Translations under genes and position numbers: made by a program
The notes under the pieces: model-generated
Told to the model about the DNA's origin: nothing
The model's input: only the letters and a program-made list of their open reading frames with translations
Database searches by the model: none
Assembly: GCA_902826095.1 (NCBI GenBank)
Contig: CADEDN010000004.1
Span: 1 to 64,000 of the forward strand
Source: an uncultured Alphaproteobacteria bacterium
GTDB lineage: Bacteria; Pseudomonadota; Alphaproteobacteria; Caulobacterales; Parvularculaceae
Reading direction: 5' to 3'
Length of the DNA stretch: 64,000 nt
Shown here: positions 9,075 to 44,674 of the stretch, one piece after another
How positions within the stretch are numbered: the stretch's first letter is position 1
Layout: each line of letters opens with the position of its first letter

Positions 9075-9149
9075 GCCTCAGTAGCTCAGCGGTAGAGCAG
9101 CCGGCGTAAAGCCGGCAGGCGGTCGGTTCGACTCCGATCTGGGACACCA
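9075..9149 (+). tRNA. atypical tRNA-like gene (class I cloverleaf, anticodon loop CGUAAAG: anticodon UAA but G33; C2:A71 mismatch; encoded CCA) - possible pseudo-tRNA
   Basis: GCCUCAG/UA/GCUC-AGCGGUA-GAGC/A/GCCGG-CGUAAAG-CCGGC/AGGCG/GUCGG-UUCGACU-CCGAU/CUGGGAC/A/CCA hand-folded. Confidence 0.45.
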
Positions 9150-9221
9150 CTGGATAGCTCAGTAGGGTAGAGCAGGAGACTGTTAATCTCTCGGTCGGGG
9201 GTTCGACTCCCCCTCCAAATT
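9148..9221 (+). tRNA. tRNA-Asn(GUU) with defective acceptor 5' strand (overlaps CCA of upstream tRNA-like gene)
   Basis: canonical D arm UAGCUCAGUAGGGUAGAGC, anticodon loop CUGUUAA, T arm GGGGG-UUCGACU-CCCCC; but 5' strand CACUGGA pairs only 4/7 with 3' strand UCCAAAU. Confidence 0.5.
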
Positions 9222-37651: not shown

Positions 37652-38497
37652 TCATATGTCGCCGACAATGAGCGCGCGCAGCTCGGACAAGCAGGCCGGC
37701 GTTTGCGGAAGGCCGGCGCGCTGCAGCTCGGCGAGGTAACTGTCAAATGAGATCGGCGGATTTCGATAGTGCTCGAAGTCCCATTTGACGGCGGCGAGGA
37801 ACGCAAGCTCGCCAATGCTCGCGACGTCGAGGATGAATTCGTCGGGATGGCGGGTATGAAGCCCGAATTTCGCGAGGATCTCCTTAGGGAAATCCTTCTC
37901 ATTAAATGTGACAATGACGCTTGCGTTCGCGCAAATCGCCGCGGCGAGTATCGGCCGGTCGCCCGCATCCGGCAAGGTCAGCGAATTCGCCAGCTCTTCA
38001 TATTCCTCGACCAGGCAATCAGGGACCGCGCGGTCCATCGCCGCGCGAGTTGCAACTAATACCAAGTTGCACGGGGTCCAACGCATTCGGCGAGGATCCC
38101 TTCTGCTTTTGAAAGTGTCATCCCGGGCGCGCTGCAACACGTAGTGTTGCGGCGCAGACCCGGGACGGCGTGCAGCCAAGGGCCCGAAACTGCGCGGGAT
38201 CCCGGGTCTGCGCCGCGGCATTGTCATGCCGCAGCGCGCCCGGGATGACACGGTTTTCTCCTTTGAAGAGGTCCCGGAAACAGGAACGTCATGAGTCTTC
38301 TTCAACGCAACTTGGTATAACGATGGCGGATTGAGATCGCTTCGCTTTGAGAGAACCGCCCTGATCCATTCTTCATGCACGTATTCCGACCAGCGCGCGC
38401 GGAACAAGCCCGTTTTCGCCAAAGAGACTACGAGACTTCTAAGGCGCGCGCCGAAGAAAACGTTTGAACCGAAGAACGCGGTGAAAGTGGAGATCAC
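37652..38497 (-). pseudogene. PIN-domain toxin gene carrying an in-frame 261-bp MITE insertion (87 extra aa between N- and C-terminal halves)
   Basis: N-terminal FFGSNVFFGARLRSLVVSLAKTGLFRARWSEYVHEEWIRAV and C-terminal LPDAGDRPILAAAICANASVIVTFNEKDFP halves match a PIN family paired with HTH antitoxins; the middle is MITE-encoded. Confidence 0.6.
38060..38327. mobile_element. full-length MITE copy (TIR TACCAAGTTGC..GCAACTTGGTA, TAA target-site duplication) inside PIN toxin gene
   Basis: TIRs, internal palindrome GTCATCCCGGGCGCGCTGC...GCAGCGCGCCCGGGATGAC, TAA flanks. Confidence 0.75.
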
Positions 38498-39124: not shown

Positions 39125-39190
39125 TTAGAATGAGCCCTCCCCTCTTTCCCCCACCCCGACCAGGTCCGAGATCTCCGCGACGCTGAGGGT
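39125..39190 (-). pseudogene. 3'-terminal fragment homologous to C-terminus of GTA tail protein (…EISDLVGVGERGEGSF)
   Basis: ~45-bp nucleotide and 17-aa similarity to the end of the 1005-aa gene (…QISDLVGVGEWGETGA). Confidence 0.35.
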
Positions 39191-39309
39191 GAGCGCCGAC
39201 GTGCCGCCCCGCGGGCGCAACAATGCGACTTCGGCGATTTGATAATGTTGATTTGCTTTTATTTGACGATAAAGTGACCCAATTGCTATCGGGGTTAGGG
39301 GCGACAACA

Positions 39310-40065
39310 ATGAAATATGCGTTATTGCTGGGCGCGATTTTCTTATCGTGCTCATGCGCAACAGTCGTGCGCGGAACCAAAGACACGGCCGAATTTGAAA
39401 GCCGGCCTAGCGGCGCCAATGTCACGGTCGAGTCGGTCAGCGAAGACAAGCTCGGACCGTATGACTGCGTCACGCCCTGCAGTCTTGAACTGAAGCGCAA
39501 ACGGACTTGGGCGGTCGACTTTACGCTCGAAGGATACAAGCCGGCTTCGGGGCGTCTTAGACCGAAAGTCACTGGCGGCGGCGTTGCGGCCGGCGCCGGC
39601 AATGTGCTGCTTGGAGGCCTCATCGGTGTCGGCGTTGATGCAGGAACCGGCGCCAATCTCGATCTGCGGCCAAATCCGATGATCGCCGAACTAGAGCCGC
39701 TCGACTCGCCGAATGAATCGCGCGTCCTCGACACGGAAATCGACGACGACGCGGCGCCGACCGCGGCCGGTGAGCCAGCGCCTTCCGCTGCGAGCGATAC
39801 TCCGTCGGCGGAGGACTTGCCCGCGAACGATGACGCCGCGCCGGCGAGCGTTGATCGGGAAAGCGCAACAGACGCCGCACCGCAGGAGACGACCGCTGCG
39901 ACCAGCGGCGAGGCGGCGACGGAAACGACCGATGAAATCGCTGGGGAGCCGGTCGCCCAGCCGGCGCGCCTGTACAAGCCCGGTGAGGTCGCGCCGAACG
40001 ATGAAGCGGCAAGCGATCTTAACCGGCGACAGCTTGAAAAGATCGAGAACCTTCCACAGCAATAA
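39310..40065 (+). CDS. lipoprotein with acidic low-complexity C-terminal half
   Basis: MKYALLLGAIFLSCSCAT lipobox; gene start sits in a locally low-GC patch; the long antisense ORF 38958-40169 is rejected. Confidence 0.6.
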   Translation: MKYALLLGAIFLSCSCATVVRGTKDTAEFESRPSGANVTVESVSEDKLGPYDCVTPCSLELKRKRTWAVDFTLEGYKPASGRLRPKVTGGGVAAGAGNVLLGGLIGVGVDAGTGANLDLRPNPMIAELEPLDSPNESRVLDTEIDDDAAPTAAGEPAPSAASDTPSAEDLPANDDAAPASVDRESATDAAPQETTAATSGEAATETTDEIAGEPVAQPARLYKPGEVAPNDEAASDLNRRQLEKIENLPQQ

Positions 40066-40147: not shown

Positions 40148-42985
40148 TCACGCCCCCGTCTCCCCCCATTCGCCGACGCCGACCAAATCCGAGATCTGCG
40201 CGACTTTGATGACGAGCGGCGGCTTTCCGCCGGGAAATCCGGCCGGCGGAAAGTCGGCGGCGATCATCGCCGCCGCATAGGCGAAGGCGGGGGTTGAGAC
40301 TTCCGCCGTGCGGACGCGGGCGGCGCCGTTCCAGATCTCGACGCGGTAGCGCTCGAAGGCCTCGCCCAAGGGGACGTCCTCGCCTTCCCAGCTGTCGCCG
40401 CCGGCCCTCGTTCTCCTTATCCAGGAGACGGCGATGTCGCCGTTCGGCTGGTCCTTCGCGCGCAGATGCGCCGGGGAGAGAGGCTTTAGCCCCCGCGCCG
40501 CGCCGGCGAAGGTCTTTATACGGAAGGTCTCTTCGGTCGGAAGATCGCCCGCCGGGCCGGCCGCCCAGTCGAAGGAGAGGCCGCGCAGGTCGAAGGGAAG
40601 CTCGGCCTGGATGATCGCGGGCGAGAGGAGGATGAAGCGCGCGCCGGCGCCGGCGCCCGCCGCCGCCTGGCGCTCGGTTCCCGCCTGCCCGCGCAAAAGG
40701 CCCGTCAGCGTCCAGACGCCGTCCGGCCCGAGCGTCGCGTCGCGAAATTGCAGAACCTCGAACCCTTGCGGCGTTTCGACGACGGCGCTGTTGGCGCCGG
40801 CGAAAATCTCTTCGGCCCCGCGCGACGCGAGCGCGCCGAAGGCGAGCCGCACGCGGAGCGTCCGCTCGTCGAAGCGGCCGGCGACGCCGGGCGCGAGCGC
40901 CGCGTCAAGCCTTCCCATCACCGCGCGCGTCGCGGCGGTTGCGGCGAGCGCCGACCCCCGATAGAGCGCGACGGCGCCCGGCCAGGGATCGGCATAGACG
41001 GCGAGATAGGGCGCGGCCGGATCATCGCCCTCGGAGAGGAGCGGCAGATTCATCAGCTCGAACGCCGGCTTTCCAAATTGCGGCGGGCTCGCCGGCGTCT
41101 TCCACCCCGATGTCGCGACCGGCGCTTCATAGACGGCCGGCGAGACGCGCACCGCCTCGACCTTGCGCGCCGCGCCGTCGGTCAGCGAGATGATGCGGAA
41201 ATCGCGGGCGACGGGCCCGAATTCGACGCGGACCGCGTCGCCGGGTTCGAGAAAGGCGAGCGAGGGCGGCAGCGTGAATGTCGCCGTTTCGCGCATCAAG
41301 GCGGCGTCGGCGAGGATCGAGCGCGCACGCGCCGCCGCGCTCGCCTCGTCCATCACCGCGGGGAGCTCCAGCGCCGTCTCGCGGATCTCGTCCGTGTGCG
41401 GATGGCGCGCCTCGGCGACAGCGGGGAGATAGTCGCCGCCCTCGTCGATATAGAGGAGGCGGACGGCGCTCGGCAGATCCGCCTTCTGCCCGGTCGTCAA
41501 GGTGAAGGCGGCGGCGCCTTTGCCGCCGGCGCCGTCGTCGACAAGCGCCGCCTTGCCGATCGTCAGCGCGTTCGGGCCGCCGCGCGGCTGGAACCGCAGG
41601 CCGGCTTGCGTCTCGACCATGTCGAACTGGAAAACATCCGCCAGGGGATCGATCATCTGGCGGGGCGAGAGCGGCCGGTCGACGACAAACCCCGCGAGCG
41701 AGCCATTGAGCGCGCCGGCGTCGGCCGCGACATCGCCTTCGGCGGCGAGCGCTTCGACGAGGGCGCCGAGCGGCGCGCGCGAGAGGCGCCCGTTCAGCCA
41801 GTGGCCCTTTTCCCAATTGCCGGCGTCGCCCCAGATGTCGCCGCGCGCCGGAAAGAACGGATAGGGCCGCGCGTCGACGGCATAGACATAGAGCCGGTCG
41901 GTGTCGATCATCGCGACGCCCGCCGCGCTTTCATTATGCGCGCGCCAATAATCATGCACGGCCTCAAGCGCGCGGCGCTGGATCTGATCGTCGCGCGCGC
42001 CGCTCGAAAAAGGCGGCAGCGCCGATTCCGACGATTTCGGATCGACAAAGACATTCGGCGCGTTCGCCCCCTTGTCGACAGCGGGACAGCCGATTTCGGT
42101 GAAGCGGATCGGCTTTGATTTCGGGACCCATGCCGTCGGCGCCGCCGCCCTTGCGAAATTCGGGCGGTCGTGATGCGCGTTCTTCCACCAATTGCGGATG
42201 TCCTTGGCGCGCCAGACGAAGGGCTCATTGTGCGCCGCGTCGCTGATCGGCGTTCTTGTCTGCGCGATGCGGTCGGCCTCGCTCGCATAATGCCAGTCGA
42301 AATGCTCGCCGCCCTCGATATTGGCGGCGATATAGGCAGGGTCGTAAGGGCTCTTCCAGCCGGCGTTCAAATCCGCATGATCAAAGCCGTCGCGCCAGTC
42401 GGCGAGCGGCGGGTAATAATCAACGCCGACAAAGTCGATATTGGCGTCCGCCCACGCGGCGTCGAATTGATGGCCGCGAAGCCCGTCCGGATCCTCCGAG
42501 GAGAACACATAGGCGACCGAGCCGTTCGCCGGAAAGACGAGGCGCCGGCGCGAGACTTCATAGCGCGGGCGCTCATTGTCGGGGCCAAGATGCGCGAGGC
42601 CGGATTGGCCGTCGATCATGACTTCCCTCCCGTCGGCATAGGTCTCGCTGACGAGCGCGATGCGCGCCGGCGTCGTCCGATCACGGACGAATTCCCGGAT
42701 CCATTCGGCGCCCGCTCTCGTCTTCCCGGCGCCGCGCCCGCCGAGCAGAAGCCATAAGGTCCAGTCATCGGTGAGCGGCCATTTCTGGTGGTCATGCGCG
42801 TTGCGGCGATACCAGTCATGCTCGGTCCCCCGAGCCTTCGCCGTGCTGTCCGCCATCAGCCTCGCGACCCCCAGCAGCGCCGCGACCTGTGAGTCGGTAT
42901 ATATGCTCATCAAGCTCTCGCTTGAGGACAGCCGCGTCAGCGGCGATGCGGGCGTTGTGGTCGGCGTCAGCGCCGTCTGTTCCAT
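40148..42985 (-). CDS. chimeric phage/GTA protein: N-terminal ~240 aa terminase-large-subunit ATPase fragment fused in frame to GTA TIM-barrel/host-specificity (g15-like) tail protein
   Basis: DWTLWLLLGGRGAGKTRAGAEWI...LRGHQFDAAWAD (TerL Walker A region) then NIDFVGVDYYPPLADWRDG... GTA TIM-barrel-like and tail regions; start uncertain (42856-43165). Confidence 0.55.
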   Translation of the reverse strand: MEQTALTPTTTPASPLTRLSSSESLMSIYTDSQVAALLGVARLMADSTAKARGTEHDWYRRNAHDHQKWPLTDDWTLWLLLGGRGAGKTRAGAEWIREFVRDRTTPARIALVSETYADGREVMIDGQSGLAHLGPDNERPRYEVSRRRLVFPANGSVAYVFSSEDPDGLRGHQFDAAWADANIDFVGVDYYPPLADWRDGFDHADLNAGWKSPYDPAYIAANIEGGEHFDWHYASEADRIAQTRTPISDAAHNEPFVWRAKDIRNWWKNAHHDRPNFARAAAPTAWVPKSKPIRFTEIGCPAVDKGANAPNVFVDPKSSESALPPFSSGARDDQIQRRALEAVHDYWRAHNESAAGVAMIDTDRLYVYAVDARPYPFFPARGDIWGDAGNWEKGHWLNGRLSRAPLGALVEALAAEGDVAADAGALNGSLAGFVVDRPLSPRQMIDPLADVFQFDMVETQAGLRFQPRGGPNALTIGKAALVDDGAGGKGAAAFTLTTGQKADLPSAVRLLYIDEGGDYLPAVAEARHPHTDEIRETALELPAVMDEASAAARARSILADAALMRETATFTLPPSLAFLEPGDAVRVEFGPVARDFRIISLTDGAARKVEAVRVSPAVYEAPVATSGWKTPASPPQFGKPAFELMNLPLLSEGDDPAAPYLAVYADPWPGAVALYRGSALAATAATRAVMGRLDAALAPGVAGRFDERTLRVRLAFGALASRGAEEIFAGANSAVVETPQGFEVLQFRDATLGPDGVWTLTGLLRGQAGTERQAAAGAGAGARFILLSPAIIQAELPFDLRGLSFDWAAGPAGDLPTEETFRIKTFAGAARGLKPLSPAHLRAKDQPNGDIAVSWIRRTRAGGDSWEGEDVPLGEAFERYRVEIWNGAARVRTAEVSTPAFAYAAAMIAADFPPAGFPGGKPPLVIKVAQISDLVGVGEWGETGA

Positions 42986-43214
42986 TCTTCTTCTTTTCCT
43001 CTCGAATGCGGCCGAGAAGCGCGTTCGCATCCTGCGCGACGCGCATGAAGGCGACCGCGGTGCGCGCGATGCGGTCGAATTTGCGATTGTCCTCGCGCTC
43101 GTCATAGGCGACGTCGGCGAGGCGTTGCCTGGTTTCGGCGATCGCAAAGCCGAAGATGCATTCAAGGCTCTCTTCGCATTCGGCGATCGTCAGCGCTGTC
43201 TTCTTCTCCGTCAT
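42816..43214 (-). CDS. hypothetical helical protein (possible GTA g1-like small protein) overlapping the terminase-fragment N-terminus in another frame
   Basis: MTEKKTALTIAECEE... 130-aa charged helical ORF just upstream of the TerL-like region. Confidence 0.3.
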   Translation of the reverse strand: MTEKKTALTIAECEESLECIFGFAIAETRQRLADVAYDEREDNRKFDRIARTAVAFMRVAQDANALLGRIREEKKKNGTDGADADHNARIAADAAVLKRELDEHIYRLTGRGAAGGREADGGQHGEGSGDRA

Positions 43215-43273
43215 CGGCTCTCGGCCCTCGTCTAATTTCAAACTCGACGGAGAATGTAGGGTCGCCGGAGGGG

Positions 43274-43345
43274 TGTGGGATAAAGTGGGGGATAAACTGG
43301 GGGATAAGGTGGGGGATAAGGTGGGGGATAAGTAGGGGGATAACT
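43274..43345. repeat. tandem ~12-bp repeats (GTGGGGGATAAG x6) followed by AT-rich segment
   Basis: GTGGGATAAAGTGGGGGATAAACTGGGGGATAAGGTGGGGGATAAGGTGGGGGATAAGTAGGGGGATAAC. Confidence 0.7.
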
Positions 43346-43511
43346 TTTTTTTATTGAGGAAAATCAGCGCGCTATATAATTAATAAAAAAGGTTGGTTAA
43401 CGGATCATTCGCCTTGTTTTTGATGAGCAGAAGATTCCAATTTTTGCAACCGCTGGCGGATGATCCGTAGACGGATCGTCAACCGCCGGGGGATTTTTGA
43501 AAGGGGCGCAT

Positions 43512-43992
43512 CCCCCCTCTCCCGCTCGCGGGAGAGGGGCCGGGGGTGAGGGGGCGTCAAAGGAGAGCGCCGCCCATGTTCGACGCCCCCTCACCCTACC
43601 CTCTCCCGCAAGCGGGAGAGGGTGGCGCGTCTCATGCGCCTCACGACAACTGAAATTTCCGGTTCTGCAGCGAGATCGCGCCGCTACCTCCCCTCTCCCG
43701 CTCGCGGGAGAGGGGCCGGGGGTGAGGGGGCGTCAAAGGAGAGATCCGTCCCTGTCTCACGCCCCCTCACCCTGCCGTCGGACGCATGGTCCGACCCCGC
43801 AAGCGGGAGAGGGTGGCGCGTCTCATGCGCCTCACGACAACTGAAATTTCCGGTTCTGCAGCGAGATCGCGCCGCTACATCCCCTCTCCCGCAAAGCGGG
43901 AGAGGGGCCCGGGGTGAGGGGGCGTCAAAGGAGAGCCCTGTCCATGTTCGACGCCCCCTCACCCTGCCCTCTCCCGCAAGCGGGAGAGGGGG
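43512..43992. repeat. tandem array (3 units of ~180 bp) of REP family B composite palindromes
   Basis: units at 43512, 43690, 43870 with identical inter-palindrome segments (not CRISPR). Confidence 0.8.
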
Positions 43993-44088
43993 GCGCACTA
44001 AATGCGATCGCCCTGCGCTAGCGGAAGAGGGGGGGGCGGCGGCGGATTTGGTCTTGTCGACCGCAAATCCGGCAGACAATCTTGACAT

Positions 44089-44427
44089 ATGCGAGACGAC
44101 CAAAAAACCAAGCTTGCGCGCCGCCTTCGTCGCGATGCGAATGCGCCGGAACGCGCCGCGTGGGCCGCACTGCGCATGCTGCGCGAGCGCGGTTTCGCCG
44201 TGCGGCGCCAGCATCCGGTTGGTCCCTATGTCGTCGACTTCGCCATTGTCGCGCGCAAACTCGTGATTGAAATCGACGGCGGCGTTCATCGCCTCAAGGC
44301 TGCGGACGACGCGCTGCGGCAATCGCATCTTGAGGGCCTTGGCTGGCGCGTCGTTCGCGTCAAACCGGAGGTCGCGCTGAGCCGGGATCATTTGCTTGAT
44401 CTTATCGAGAGAGTGCTCGGGAATTGA
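44089..44427 (+). CDS. DUF559 endonuclease-domain protein (Vsr/restriction-endonuclease-like fold)
   Basis: ERGFAVRRQHPVGPYVVDFAIVARKLVIEIDGGVHR...GWRVVRV conserved DUF559 core; embedded between REP arrays. Confidence 0.75.
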   Translation: MRDDQKTKLARRLRRDANAPERAAWAALRMLRERGFAVRRQHPVGPYVVDFAIVARKLVIEIDGGVHRLKAADDALRQSHLEGLGWRVVRVKPEVALSRDHLLDLIERVLGN

Positions 44428-44440
44428 AGCGCCCTCTCTT

Positions 44441-44666
44441 CCCCCTCTCGCGCTTGCGGGGTCGGACCATGCGTCCGACGGGCCGGGGGTGAGGGGGCGT
44501 CAAAGGAGAGCGCCGCTCATGTTCGACGCCCCCTCACCCTGCCCTCTCCCGCAAGCGGGAGAGGGTGGCTCGTTTGGCGCACGCAATAAACTTCGAAGAT
44601 TTGGATTGCGCGGTGAGATCGCAGAAGAAGGGCGCCTTCCCCCCTCTCCCGCAAGCGGGAGAGGGT
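44441..44666. repeat. REP family B copies
   Basis: CCCTCTCGCGCTTGCGGGGTCGGACCATGCGTCCGAC...GGGGGTGAGGGGGCGTCAAAGGAGAG...CCCTCTCCCGCAAGCGGGAGAGGG. Confidence 0.75.
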
Positions 44667-44674
44667 TCGCGCCG

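Follow-up and report, generated by a model that had tools for sequence, protein, structure and literature searches.

Gene transfer agents (GTAs) kill the cells that produce them, their loss is thought to create 'cheaters', and the persistence of GTAs is an open question. The closest described system for the locus presented here is the RcGTA head-tail cluster (g1-g15; PDB 6TBA/6TEH). The window, that is, the whole 64-kb stretch of DNA that was analyzed, comes from a Parvularculaceae-like host and not from the Rhizobiales, among which a preliminary description had placed its relatives. Like RcGTA, the locus shows the g1/g2 overlap, lies in the same neighbourhood as the intact clusters of relatives, and contains a hybrid gene whose g2 (large terminase) N-terminus and g15 C-terminus are collinear with their RcGTA counterparts. 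It differs from RcGTA in that at least 13 of the 17 genes are missing from the window, and in that the g15 part of the hybrid lacks the iris/penetration domain, the adhesin-like domain and, of the peripheral domain, the initial ~300 aa (domain limits taken from PMC7296036).

GTA 'small clusters', pseudogenised clusters and recurrent GTA loss have already been described (Shakya et al., 2017, PMC5721377; Kogay and Zhaxybayeva, 2024, PMC10883770). The present locus resembles that pattern as a partial GTA locus whose relatives keep complete clusters, and it fits the repeated loss and the 'cheater' lineages proposed there. However, the published cases concern gene-content loss and scattered pseudogenes, with no in-frame two-gene hybrid, common breakpoint or repeated junction, and a search of one literature library found no report of an in-frame terminase-g15 hybrid with a recurrent junction. 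There are further remnants of GTA loci: L029 and L030 retain g1 and a whole 403-aa terminase beside the usual DnaJ neighbour, L023 retains only g14 and g15, P0333 has terminase residues 1-190 fused to a g8-like protein, and P0124 and P0212 are terminase::g15 hybrids with other junctions. These breakpoints were each seen once, whereas the window belongs to a recurring class.

Architecture of the terminase-g15 hybrid

In the open-reading-frame listing, the hybrid ORF spans 40148..43165(-) and encodes 1005 aa from an upstream TTG. The gene likely starts at ATG 42910, giving a product of 920 aa (40148-42910(-)) through which the reading frame is uninterrupted; the database copy of the hybrid (P0001) is 945 aa long. 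The ORF is confirmed as the N-terminus of a GTA large terminase in frame with the C-terminal 60% of g15 ("megatron"), comprising the first 155 residues of the former and the last ~765 residues of the latter. The preliminary description had read the ORF as a terminase N-terminus running into a GTA TIM-barrel tail protein, and the Pfam matches that it proposed to look for, GTA_TIM and Phage-tail_3, were both found (Table 1).

Table 1. Coordinates of the features of the locus; residues are in the numbering of the 1005-aa ORF unless stated otherwise.
Feature	Position (nt)	Strand	Residues	Evidence and remarks
g15 3' relic	39128..39208	(-)		last ~27 codons and stop of another copy; nucleotide and protein similarity
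Lipoprotein-like gene	39223-40065	(+)		convergent, between the g15 relic and the live g15 end
g15 C-terminal part with stop codon	40148..42445	(-)		GTA_TIM, Phage-tail_3 and Rcc01698_C matches
Deletion junction, TGG GCG GAC (W-A-D)	42454-42446	(-)		nucleotide comparison with L024
Large-terminase (g2) stub	42446..42910	(-)	1-155 (920-aa product)	Walker A GGRGAGKT to Walker-B strand QFDAAWAD
Terminase_6N			140-240	profile 2-103 of 215, E 5e-11
GTA_TIM			216-439	profile 72-299 of 299, E 2e-93
Phage-tail_3			496-661	profile search
Rcc01698_C			748-845	profile search
g1-like small ORF	42816..43241	(-)		start ATG 43214, kept in related loci; overlaps 5' end of hybrid gene
Six tandem 12-nt units (TTATCCCCCnnn, gene strand)	43273..43343	(-)		directly upstream of g1; TRF
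TTAACCA	43394..43400	(-)		~50 nt upstream of the repeats

The terminase stub matches PHROG 2 (terminase large subunit) and is 78% identical to residues 9-134 of the intact terminase of the related locus L024. It ends at WAD, with Ala at the position of the catalytic Glu, and, lacking this residue, the remainder of the ATPase and the nuclease domain, it does not amount to a complete g2; a domain profile search found Terminase_6C absent from the hybrid ORF. On the g15 side, the TIM-like peripheral domain is represented by its second half, together with the central and fibre-binding domains, and this part aligns to residues 525-1295 of RcGTA g15 (PDB 6TBA/6TEH). The hybrid scores 846 bits with the NCBIfam equivalog model GTA_megatron (NF048004; curated cutoff 800), with the match confined to profile positions 519-1294 of 1299, and the full-length g15 architecture is lacking. 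In the AlphaFold model, pLDDT is below 50 at the junction, 35-64 in the TIM remnant and 75-93 in the C-terminal domains.

The first g15-only codon begins at 42445, precisely where the preliminary description had suggested looking for the junction, and the join reads ...QFDAAWAD followed by ANIDFVGVDYYPPLADWRDG. The W-A-D junction sequence occurs in both parent genes, which in L024 read TGG GGC GAC GAG (terminase) and CTG TGG GCG GAC AAT (g15). Between the two breakpoints, L024 holds a complete terminase-portal-protease-capsid-tail-g15 array, which supports an internal deletion, as proposed earlier, here of ~11.2 kb, as the origin of the hybrid. A tblastn search with all L024 GTA proteins recovered only the g1-like ORF, g2 residues 9-134 and the g15 C-terminal part, and no further head-tail gene within the 64-kb window, which is short of the 14 of 17 head-tail genes at least that define a complete cluster (PMC10883770). 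This gene content shows that the locus is unable to build particles. The contig of the window recurs at 100% identity in an independent Logan assembly.

Upstream region and chromosomal neighbourhood

The promoter-like region, with its tandem 12-mers and the TTAAC half-site farther upstream, and the g1-like small ORF overlapping the terminase start, all pointed out in the preliminary description, were recovered (Table 1). The g1-like ORF has no match in Pfam, NCBIfam or PHROG and is labelled g1 because of its position and the g1/g2 overlap in the intact cluster L028. In L005, L013 and L026, tblastn detects relatives of it (32-45% identity) upstream of the fusion gene. The window and L026 copies are 32% identical, although the corresponding hybrids are 74% identical, and the L003/L031 copies differ by 8 non-synonymous vs 2 synonymous changes; g1 was dropped as an internal neutral control because it evolves fast everywhere.

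For the repeat tract, TRF gave a period of 12 and 5.9 copies, and TTATCCCCC occurs five times within it and nowhere else in the 64 kb, against 0.12 occurrences expected by chance. The repeats are, however, not peculiar to this remnant. Six 12-nt units precede g1 in both L005 and L013, five in L026 and two in L003, with one unit more in L031 than in L003; in all five related fusion loci that were checked, the repeats are conserved ahead of g1. A single unit is found near g1 at the intact-cluster locus L028 (gene strand) and, on the opposite strand, at the fusion locus L027. A literature search turned up no relevant mention of the repeat motif. In addition, GTTAACCA(A/T) stands at an equal relative position upstream of g1 in L003, L005 and L013. 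We take TTAACCA to be a putative CtrA-type half-site-like element, presuming a TTAACCAT motif. Scans of the region found neither a sigma-70-like promoter nor an Rfam family.

The hybrid occupies the canonical GTA head-tail locus, in a conserved and vertically inherited neighbourhood. Its downstream genes (DnaJ-like, HtrA-like, HisKA and others) are common to the intact-cluster loci L004, L012, L015 and L024, and fusion loci and intact loci have this downstream synteny in common. HTH_17 and PIN genes directly follow g15 in L024, L026 and L031, and a homologue of the lipoprotein-like gene comes after g15 in L006 and L023. The additional g15-like 3' fragment noticed earlier is likewise real: positions 39137-39208 are 76% identical to 40160-40231 and encode ...LSVAEISDLVGVGERGEGSF and a stop. 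This relic is altered at otherwise constant positions (VAEISD vs VAQ[IL]SD).

Recurrence and independent origins of the fusion

At least 20 hybrid genes exist besides that of the window, scattered among intact genes in g15 trees, and 11 other loci have the junction at the identical codon position. Four junction types recur, all of which break the terminase between the same GAC and GAG of Walker B, and type 1 (W-[A/S]-D), the type of the window, is the commonest. This class was defined here by ...QF.AAW[A/S/G]D joined to xx[I/V]xx[I/V][G/A][I/V]D.Y.P...WR in a GTA locus with g1 upstream, and the protein alignment, the nucleotide view and the synteny with g1 all place the hybrid of the window within it.

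In neighbour-joining trees, P0009 and P0040 are the sole fusions in clades of 14 and 10 members, respectively (bootstrap 100% for each), P0039 and P0018 pair as sisters with intact P0082 (80%) and intact P0014 (100%), respectively, and P0112 clusters with intact P0095 and P0098 (100%). Moreover, the residues after the junction resemble those of local intact relatives (e.g. IDQYAPL, IDNYMPL), and distant lineages (P0121, L027) also hold type-1 fusions. The scatter of the fusions implies that type 1 originated independently at least six times, type 2 at least three times and type 6 at least four times. A single ancient fusion with vertical inheritance was ruled out by the 80-100% bootstrap scatter together with the junction-adjacent residues, and spread of one deletion allele by homologous recombination appears unlikely at the 55-80% protein identity seen between lineages. 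The 16-member clade of the window, with five fusions, forms a star-like polytomy in which quartet counts are near chance for monophyly of these fusions.

Such repeated origins were not foreseen in the preliminary description, whose simplest reading was an internal deletion. It had also taken intact single genes of the same domain order in GTA-less genomes as speaking against its interpretation. This objection applies in part: such genes do occur in many other genomes in which the cluster is absent from this locus, but they arose repeatedly and independently and do not form one orthologous family.

Regarding frequency, type 1 was found in 3 of ~14 Parvularculaceae-type loci in a tblastn-based sample of species-representative genomes, and no g15 truncation of another kind was found in that sample. 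Undecayed fusions account for ~8% of close g15 homologues. Fusions are present in short-read and long-read assemblies from NCBI, ENA, JGI and Logan, and in an isolate of Hyphococcus sp. (WP_375205587.1). Searches with junction-spanning DNA patterns added one type-1 locus from JGI metagenomes (L027) and found none in IMG/VR; a junction-centred protein search returned only proteins of at most 405 aa, missed known fusions and is not a census.

Explanations for the recurrent join and their implications

With moderate confidence, the locus is interpreted as a native RcGTA-type locus after an in-frame internal deletion of ~11.2 kb and as one instance of a recurrent deletion class. The deletion would begin at the g2 codon for the Walker-B Asp and end at g15 codon ~520, removing the catalytic Glu and nuclease of the terminase, portal, protease, capsid, head-tail adaptors, tail tube, tape measure and g12-g14, as well as the N-terminus of g15 with its pore-forming and adhesin parts. 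It would leave the GTA promoter region (TTAACCA and the TTATCCCCC repeats), g1 and one 920-aa hybrid ORF, and the GTA-ON subpopulation probably continues to transcribe the hybrid from the GTA promoter. The event itself was probably illegitimate recombination at the short shared TGG-NCG-GAC, with an extra strong bias for this join; the donor site could be a hot spot of mutation, or hybrids that are tolerated or useful could survive preferentially. In the deletion class as a whole, the GAC-GAG breakpoint of the terminase has been linked, time and again and independently, to one of four g15 codons.

Microhomology was rejected as a cause that suffices by itself. In the intact locus L024, terminase and g15 have 158 exact repeats of 9 nt or more in common, the longest being 15 nt, the type-1 site ranks ~25th to 450th of 14,400 positions in similarity to the donor window, and junction types 2 and 6 share only ~4 nt between parents. 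Given these alternative repeats and this modest rank, a plain microhomology deletion is inadequate to explain the recurrence, and chance deletion does not easily account for a repeated in-frame join in so many relatives. Across families, the four junction types place the donor site within ~3 nt of the same point. The acceptor sites have no common sequence besides GA(C/G), and on a confident model of intact g15 they are irregularly placed and follow no clean structural rule. A chimeric barrel in which the Walker-B strand takes the place of a TIM strand was also considered and is unsupported, owing to the low confidence of the fusion model in this part and the irregular acceptor sites.

The locus had been regarded as a decayed remnant, but no decay of the hybrid gene is visible. 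Its ORF carries none of the marks of a pseudogene (frameshifts, premature stops, excess conserved-site changes), with 0/175 conserved g15 sites and 1/35 conserved terminase sites altered, and is therefore either young or still constrained. Fusions overall match intact genes in this respect (0-2/175 g15 and 0-2/35 terminase sites), and most members have intact ORFs. Three loci are broken: the terminase stub is disrupted in L005, L032 has two in-frame stops (short-read assembly), and L013 has 4 frameshifts in 2.8 kb vs 1 in ~6.5 kb of neighbouring genes (p about 0.03), a difference that, together with the stops in its short-read sister L032, counters sequencing noise as the cause. Such decay fits a loss allele, whereas the ~8% share of undecayed fusions is hard to explain if each were a fresh neutral relic. 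Two options stand for the hybrid, a GTA-loss allele that recurs and a chimera that is maintained.

The second of these options, in which a functional hybrid is kept by purifying selection after GTA loss and few architectures recur because only those give a useful or at least stable protein, is possible rather than probable. It draws on the multiple origins of three junction types at one terminase breakpoint, on the intact ORFs and intact-like conserved sites, on the retained promoter motifs, and on the near relatives of a fusion at ≥90% identity (P0389, P0390, P0391, L032), 4/4 of which are fusions too, favouring shared, old deletions. Furthermore, dN/dS is 0.05-0.25 in two sister fusion pairs, both other than the window, which equals the value of intact-intact pairs and speaks against neutral relics. 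In L003/L031 it is 0.23 overall, 0.17 in the stub and 0.14 in the TIM remnant; in L013/L032 the stub has 4 non-synonymous vs 27 synonymous changes (dN/dS 0.047 at dS 0.40), and dN/dS after the junction is 0.19. The deletion is likely shared by ancestry within each pair; had the sisters deleted separately, however, the low dN/dS would reflect their intact GTA past. Recombination with intact alleles could also keep dN/dS low; L003/L031 have a tract with dS 0.94 at the 3' end. The broken loci, the AlphaFold model without a confident fold for the junction or TIM remnant, and the irregular acceptor sites likewise stand against maintenance. Speculatively, a maintained hybrid might act as a poison subunit against related phage/GTA terminases or baseplates, or as a fibre-binding scaffold. 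More broadly, and only tentatively, such TerL-stub::megatron hybrids may be a convergent, selected gene type, kept only if joined at the Walker-B Asp and one of four g15 positions and expressed from the GTA promoter in a new role, e.g. phage/GTA interference.

Site-specific or programmed excision at the Walker-B site, for instance where a homing-type endonuclease cuts or replication pauses, would yield frequent and always recent products, in line with the exact donor site and the mostly undecayed products. This is very unlikely, as the loci examined have no associated gene for a recombinase or endonuclease, the acceptor sites share nothing past GA(C/G), break repair would presumably not spare the left end from resection each time, and sister fusions at dS 0.08-0.28 point to older events. 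A one-off random decay, a single chance deletion outside any wider pattern, shares the well-supported deletion origin but is less credible still in view of the polyphyletic fusions with the same terminase breakpoint and, in 11 cases, the same junction codon. An assembly or binning artefact joining two distant genes can be practically dismissed: no evidence for it was found, the sequence shared at the join (at most 10-11 nt) is far below any assembler k-mer, an independent assembly gave the identical contig, the same join occurs in MEGAHIT, SPAdes-type and long-read contigs, some >1 Mb, and flanking synteny is as expected.

Automatic annotation labels the hybrids 'megatron' or 'glycoside hydrolase/phage tail protein', and GTA censuses that count g15 or terminase hits therefore overcount GTA-positive genomes. 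If the favoured reading is right and the deletion class is a recurrent one, the locus indicates a specific GTA-loss allele that arises repeatedly at one nucleotide position across families and that is easily recognized and easily assayed by PCR. If the cause is mutational, a conserved ATPase motif would harbour a fragile site, offering a direct measure of natural GTA loss rates. If it is selective, two unrelated phage genes would have given rise, repeatedly and in parallel, to one chimeric protein, and nature would have run a rare experiment in recombining domains and in the exaptation of viral remnants.

Composition and origin of the hybrid gene

Four Pfam domains are carried by the hybrid gene, in which the N-terminal stub of the GTA large terminase (g2) is joined in frame to the C-terminal part of g15. 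Terminase_6N is matched at the N-terminus over profile positions 2-103 of 215 only and GTA_TIM over positions 72 to 299, Phage-tail_3 and Rcc01698_C being the remaining two. The NCBIfam model GTA_megatron is likewise covered over positions 519-1294 of 1299 only, and residues 525-1295 of the solved RcGTA g15 form the span aligned by the hybrid protein. The switch from terminase to g15 (...QFDAAWAD^ANIDFVGVDYYPP, where the caret marks the join) falls exactly where the preliminary description had placed it, and every other element of that description, namely the hybrid frame, the small ORF, the repeats, the TTAACCA motif and the g15 relic, was borne out.

Features of the window at and around the hybrid gene
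Feature	Position (nt)	Strand	Remark
Two adjacent tRNA genes	9075-9217	plus	
PIN-domain gene (RSP_2648 family)	37652-38497	minus	downstream of HTH_17 gene
In-frame insert in PIN-domain gene	especially 38040-38310		
Perfect 21-nt inverted repeat	38115-38135 / 38231-38251		
Decayed g15 copy, last ~27 codons	39128-39208	minus	downstream of hybrid
~1-kb segment	39128-40231		
Lipoprotein-like gene	39223-40065	plus	between live g15 end and relic end
Open frame of hybrid	40148-43165	minus	ORF listing; likely start ATG 42910, giving 920 aa
Junction W-A-D codons	42454-42446	minus	nucleotide comparison
Aromatic residue of RRRLV[W/F]P	~42540		
141-aa ORF	42816-43241	minus	upstream of hybrid; conserved start ATG 43214
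Six 12-nt repeats	43273-43343	minus	beside 141-aa ORF; core TTATCCCCC
TTAACCA site	43394-43400	minus	motif position
REP-like palindromic repeat family	43500-44670		
DUF559 endonuclease-like ORF	44089-44427	plus	enclosed by REP-like repeats

The nearest genomes are Parvularculaceae-type MAGs and not Rhizobiales, the order named in the preliminary description. A DnaJ-like gene, an HtrA-like protease, a histidine kinase and others lie 3' of the hybrid, and the same genes follow g15 in loci with a full-length g15 and upstream GTA genes. In the intact cluster L024, the equivalent locus holds the full array of terminase, portal, protease, capsid, adaptors, tail tube, chaperones, tape measure, g12-g14 and g15; its g15 (1287 aa) is 76% identical to that of the window, and the HTH_17 and PIN pair after g15 is common to both. 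Given this array, the 11,166 nt that separate the two W codons in L024 coordinates, and the absence of further head-tail genes from the window's 64 kb, the hybrid arose at the native GTA locus through an internal deletion that preserved the reading frame. Particles cannot be produced by this locus. An assembly error is rejected as the source of the join, since an independent assembly contains the identical contig and the join shares only ~10 nt.

The repeat core is absent from the rest of the window. In related fusion loci, TTATCCCCC units with their 12-nt period and the GTTAACCA site are kept upstream of g1, with six units each in L005 and L013, five in L026 and two in L003; L003 and L031, at 96% identity, differ here by a single 12-nt indel, exactly one unit. 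Furthermore, one unit lies near g1 at the intact cluster L028 and another, on the opposite strand, near g1 at the distant fusion locus L027. The repeats thus belong to the native GTA control region of the window's clade, where their copy number varies, and did not arise through decay. The TTAACCA motif is a putative CtrA half-site.

Several elements were observed in the surrounding sequence. Compared with its 196-aa homologue in L026, the PIN-domain gene carries an in-frame insert of ~90 aa, whose overlap with the perfect inverted repeat suggests that a small palindromic element may have been inserted into the coding sequence. The REP-like family comprises four ~100-nt copies of 73-100% identity with many CCCTCTCCCGC..GCGGGAGAGGG hairpins; PLPLAGEGR, a peptide typical of these repeats, occurs in frame inside the otherwise intact L024 terminase (464 aa vs the usual ~403). 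The tRNA genes were the only Rfam matches at gathering level in the window.

Recurrence of the junction

The first homology search recovered eight further proteins in which these four domains follow each other in the same way, in addition to P0021, whose gene call begins within the terminase stub; these hybrids are 54-77% identical to the window's protein. Further searches enlarged the set, and alignment sorted its members into a few junction types. Other junctions are found in the singletons P0124, P0212 and P0333, the partner of the terminase part in P0333 being a g8-like protein. Among isolates, one Hyphococcus sp. encodes a fusion (WP_375205587.1), and intact clusters are present in cultured Hyphococcus, Rhodobacter capsulatus and Caulobacter crescentus.

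Junction types of terminase::g15 hybrids (caret, position of the join)
Type	Junction	Members (P, proteins; L, loci)
1	AAW[A/S/G]D^xx[I/V]DF...	window, P0002, P0003, P0004, P0009, P0021/L005, L013, L032, P0039, P0040, P0121, L027
2	AAWSD^E[I/T/A]GCPAVDK	P0018, P0112, P0400
4	AAW[A/S]D^DFGYHP	P0125, P0270
6	AAW[S/C]D^DPKS[S/A]ES	P0395, P0396, P0399, P0403

In all four types, the terminase break falls within GAC^GAG, which codes for the Walker-B Asp-Glu. In the loci with sequence context (L003, L005, L013, L025, L026 and L031), the hybrid occupies the same position and is preceded by a g1-like ORF; in L003, L005, L013, L025 and L026, the DnaJ-like neighbour lies 3' wherever the contig reaches. 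Among the ~14 Parvularculaceae-type loci of species-representative genomes, found by tblastn with the g15 C-part and hence sampled blind to upstream content, type 1 occurred in three and other g15 truncations in none.

Neighbour-joining trees of the shared g15 part (100 bootstraps) place the fusions scattered among intact genes. P0009 and P0040 are the sole fusions of clades of 14 and 10 members, respectively (both 100% bootstrap), P0039 has an intact gene as its sister (80%), and P0018 and P0112, both of type 2, each nest among intact genes (100%). For each of the four proteins of type 6, a different intact gene is the nearest neighbour (71-86% identity), and the residues directly after the junction resemble those of local intact relatives. 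The window's own 16-member clade (99% support), a polytomy, contains five type-1 fusions and one of type 2. A conservative count gives at least six origins for type 1, at least three for type 2 and about four for type 6.

This recurrence could have a mutational cause, with a hot spot at the donor site, or it could arise because only tolerated or useful hybrids survive. The bias of protein searches, which detect in-frame terminase-plus-g15 products only, accounts for the in-frame character of the matches but leaves unexplained why the joins involve a single donor codon and four acceptor codons. Microhomology in types 1 and 4 is real but short (TGG-NCG-GA, 8-10 nt), with W-[A/S]-[D/E] at the join positions in both parent proteins. 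It is insufficient as the only cause, because the exact repeats shared by the terminase and g15 of an intact cluster number 158 at 9 nt or longer and 55 at 10 nt or longer (the longest 15 nt), the type-1 site comes no higher than about 25th to 450th among 14,400 positions in similarity to the donor window, and types 2 and 6 share only ~4 nt at the join. A structural rule, by which the Walker-B strand would replace a barrel strand, was not borne out by AlphaFold models: the fusion model is confident for the stub (pLDDT 72-88) and the C-terminal domains (75-93), with the junction below 50 and the TIM remnant at 35-64, and the acceptor sites lie in dissimilar places on the confident intact-g15 model (pLDDT 85.6).

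Conservation and decay of the fusions

The hybrid may be a maintained, functional chimera, though this is less likely than not. Several results favour maintenance. Of 175 g15 positions conserved to at least 97% among 80 full-length proteins, 0-2 are changed in the fusions and none in the window; of 35 conserved terminase positions, the corresponding counts are 0-2 and one. Between L003 and L031, both with the type-1 junction (dS 0.08), dN/dS is 0.23 for the hybrid as a whole, 0.17 for the stub and 0.14 for the TIM remnant. Between L013 and L032 (dS 0.28), the whole hybrid gives 0.14 and the stub 0.047 (4 non-synonymous vs 27 synonymous codons). These values equal those of intact-intact pairs (0.14-0.23). 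In addition, every near relative of a fusion recovered at ≥90% identity (four in all) is itself a fusion, which favours deletions older than those splits. Other results speak against maintenance. The stub is broken in L005, four frameshifts occur in L013, and in L032 two in-frame stops interrupt the gene and radical replacements are numerous beyond the junction, the L032 branch carrying 25 non-synonymous and 36 synonymous changes vs 8 and 28 on the L013 branch (polarised against the window). Separate deletions in sister lineages would leave a low dN/dS that mirrors an intact past, and recombination with intact alleles could likewise lower it, as fits the divergent 3' tract of L003/L031.

In this tract, the last 63 codons of g15, dS reaches 0.94 vs ~0.04 elsewhere, so that the 3' end of g15 resembles a hot spot of recombination. 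The relic in the window, 76% identical to the live g15 end, also points to exchange at this end. The ~1-kb segment is missing from L024, L026 and L031, and a lipoprotein-like gene follows g15 in L006 and L023; this distribution suggests the import of a g15 3' end together with the adjoining gene.

The stub motif RRRLV[W/F]P includes a Trp whose conservation among 45 intact terminases is at least 95%. Five fusions from the window's clade carry Phe there, namely P0002, P0018, L013, P0122 and P0001, the last being the database copy of the window's protein; the two intact terminases closest to these fusions (L024 and P0271) have Trp. The Phe could be a lineage marker or a fusion-specific change.

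The hybrid among GTA remnants

Remnants of other kinds were also observed. In L023 (600-8900; MAG RIFCSPHIGHO2_12_FULL_63_12), g14 and a full g15 are retained, and about ten tandem paralogous ~255-aa genes, some with weak DUF6090 matches, stand upstream in place of the remaining cluster. In L029/L030 (3499-5212), g1 and a complete 403-aa terminase are left, with a DUF885 gene and the usual DnaJ neighbour immediately after them. All genes from portal to g15 are missing, and 3 kb upstream there is an IS1595-family transposase.

GTA clusters have been described as repeatedly lost and pseudogenised, and lineages of this kind have been proposed to be cheaters (PMC5721377, PMC10883770). Neither in-frame terminase::g15 hybrids nor a shared breakpoint was found described in the literature searched. 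By origin, the window's gene is a GTA remnant of an ordinary kind, but the class to which it belongs is regular and recurrent to an unexpected degree.
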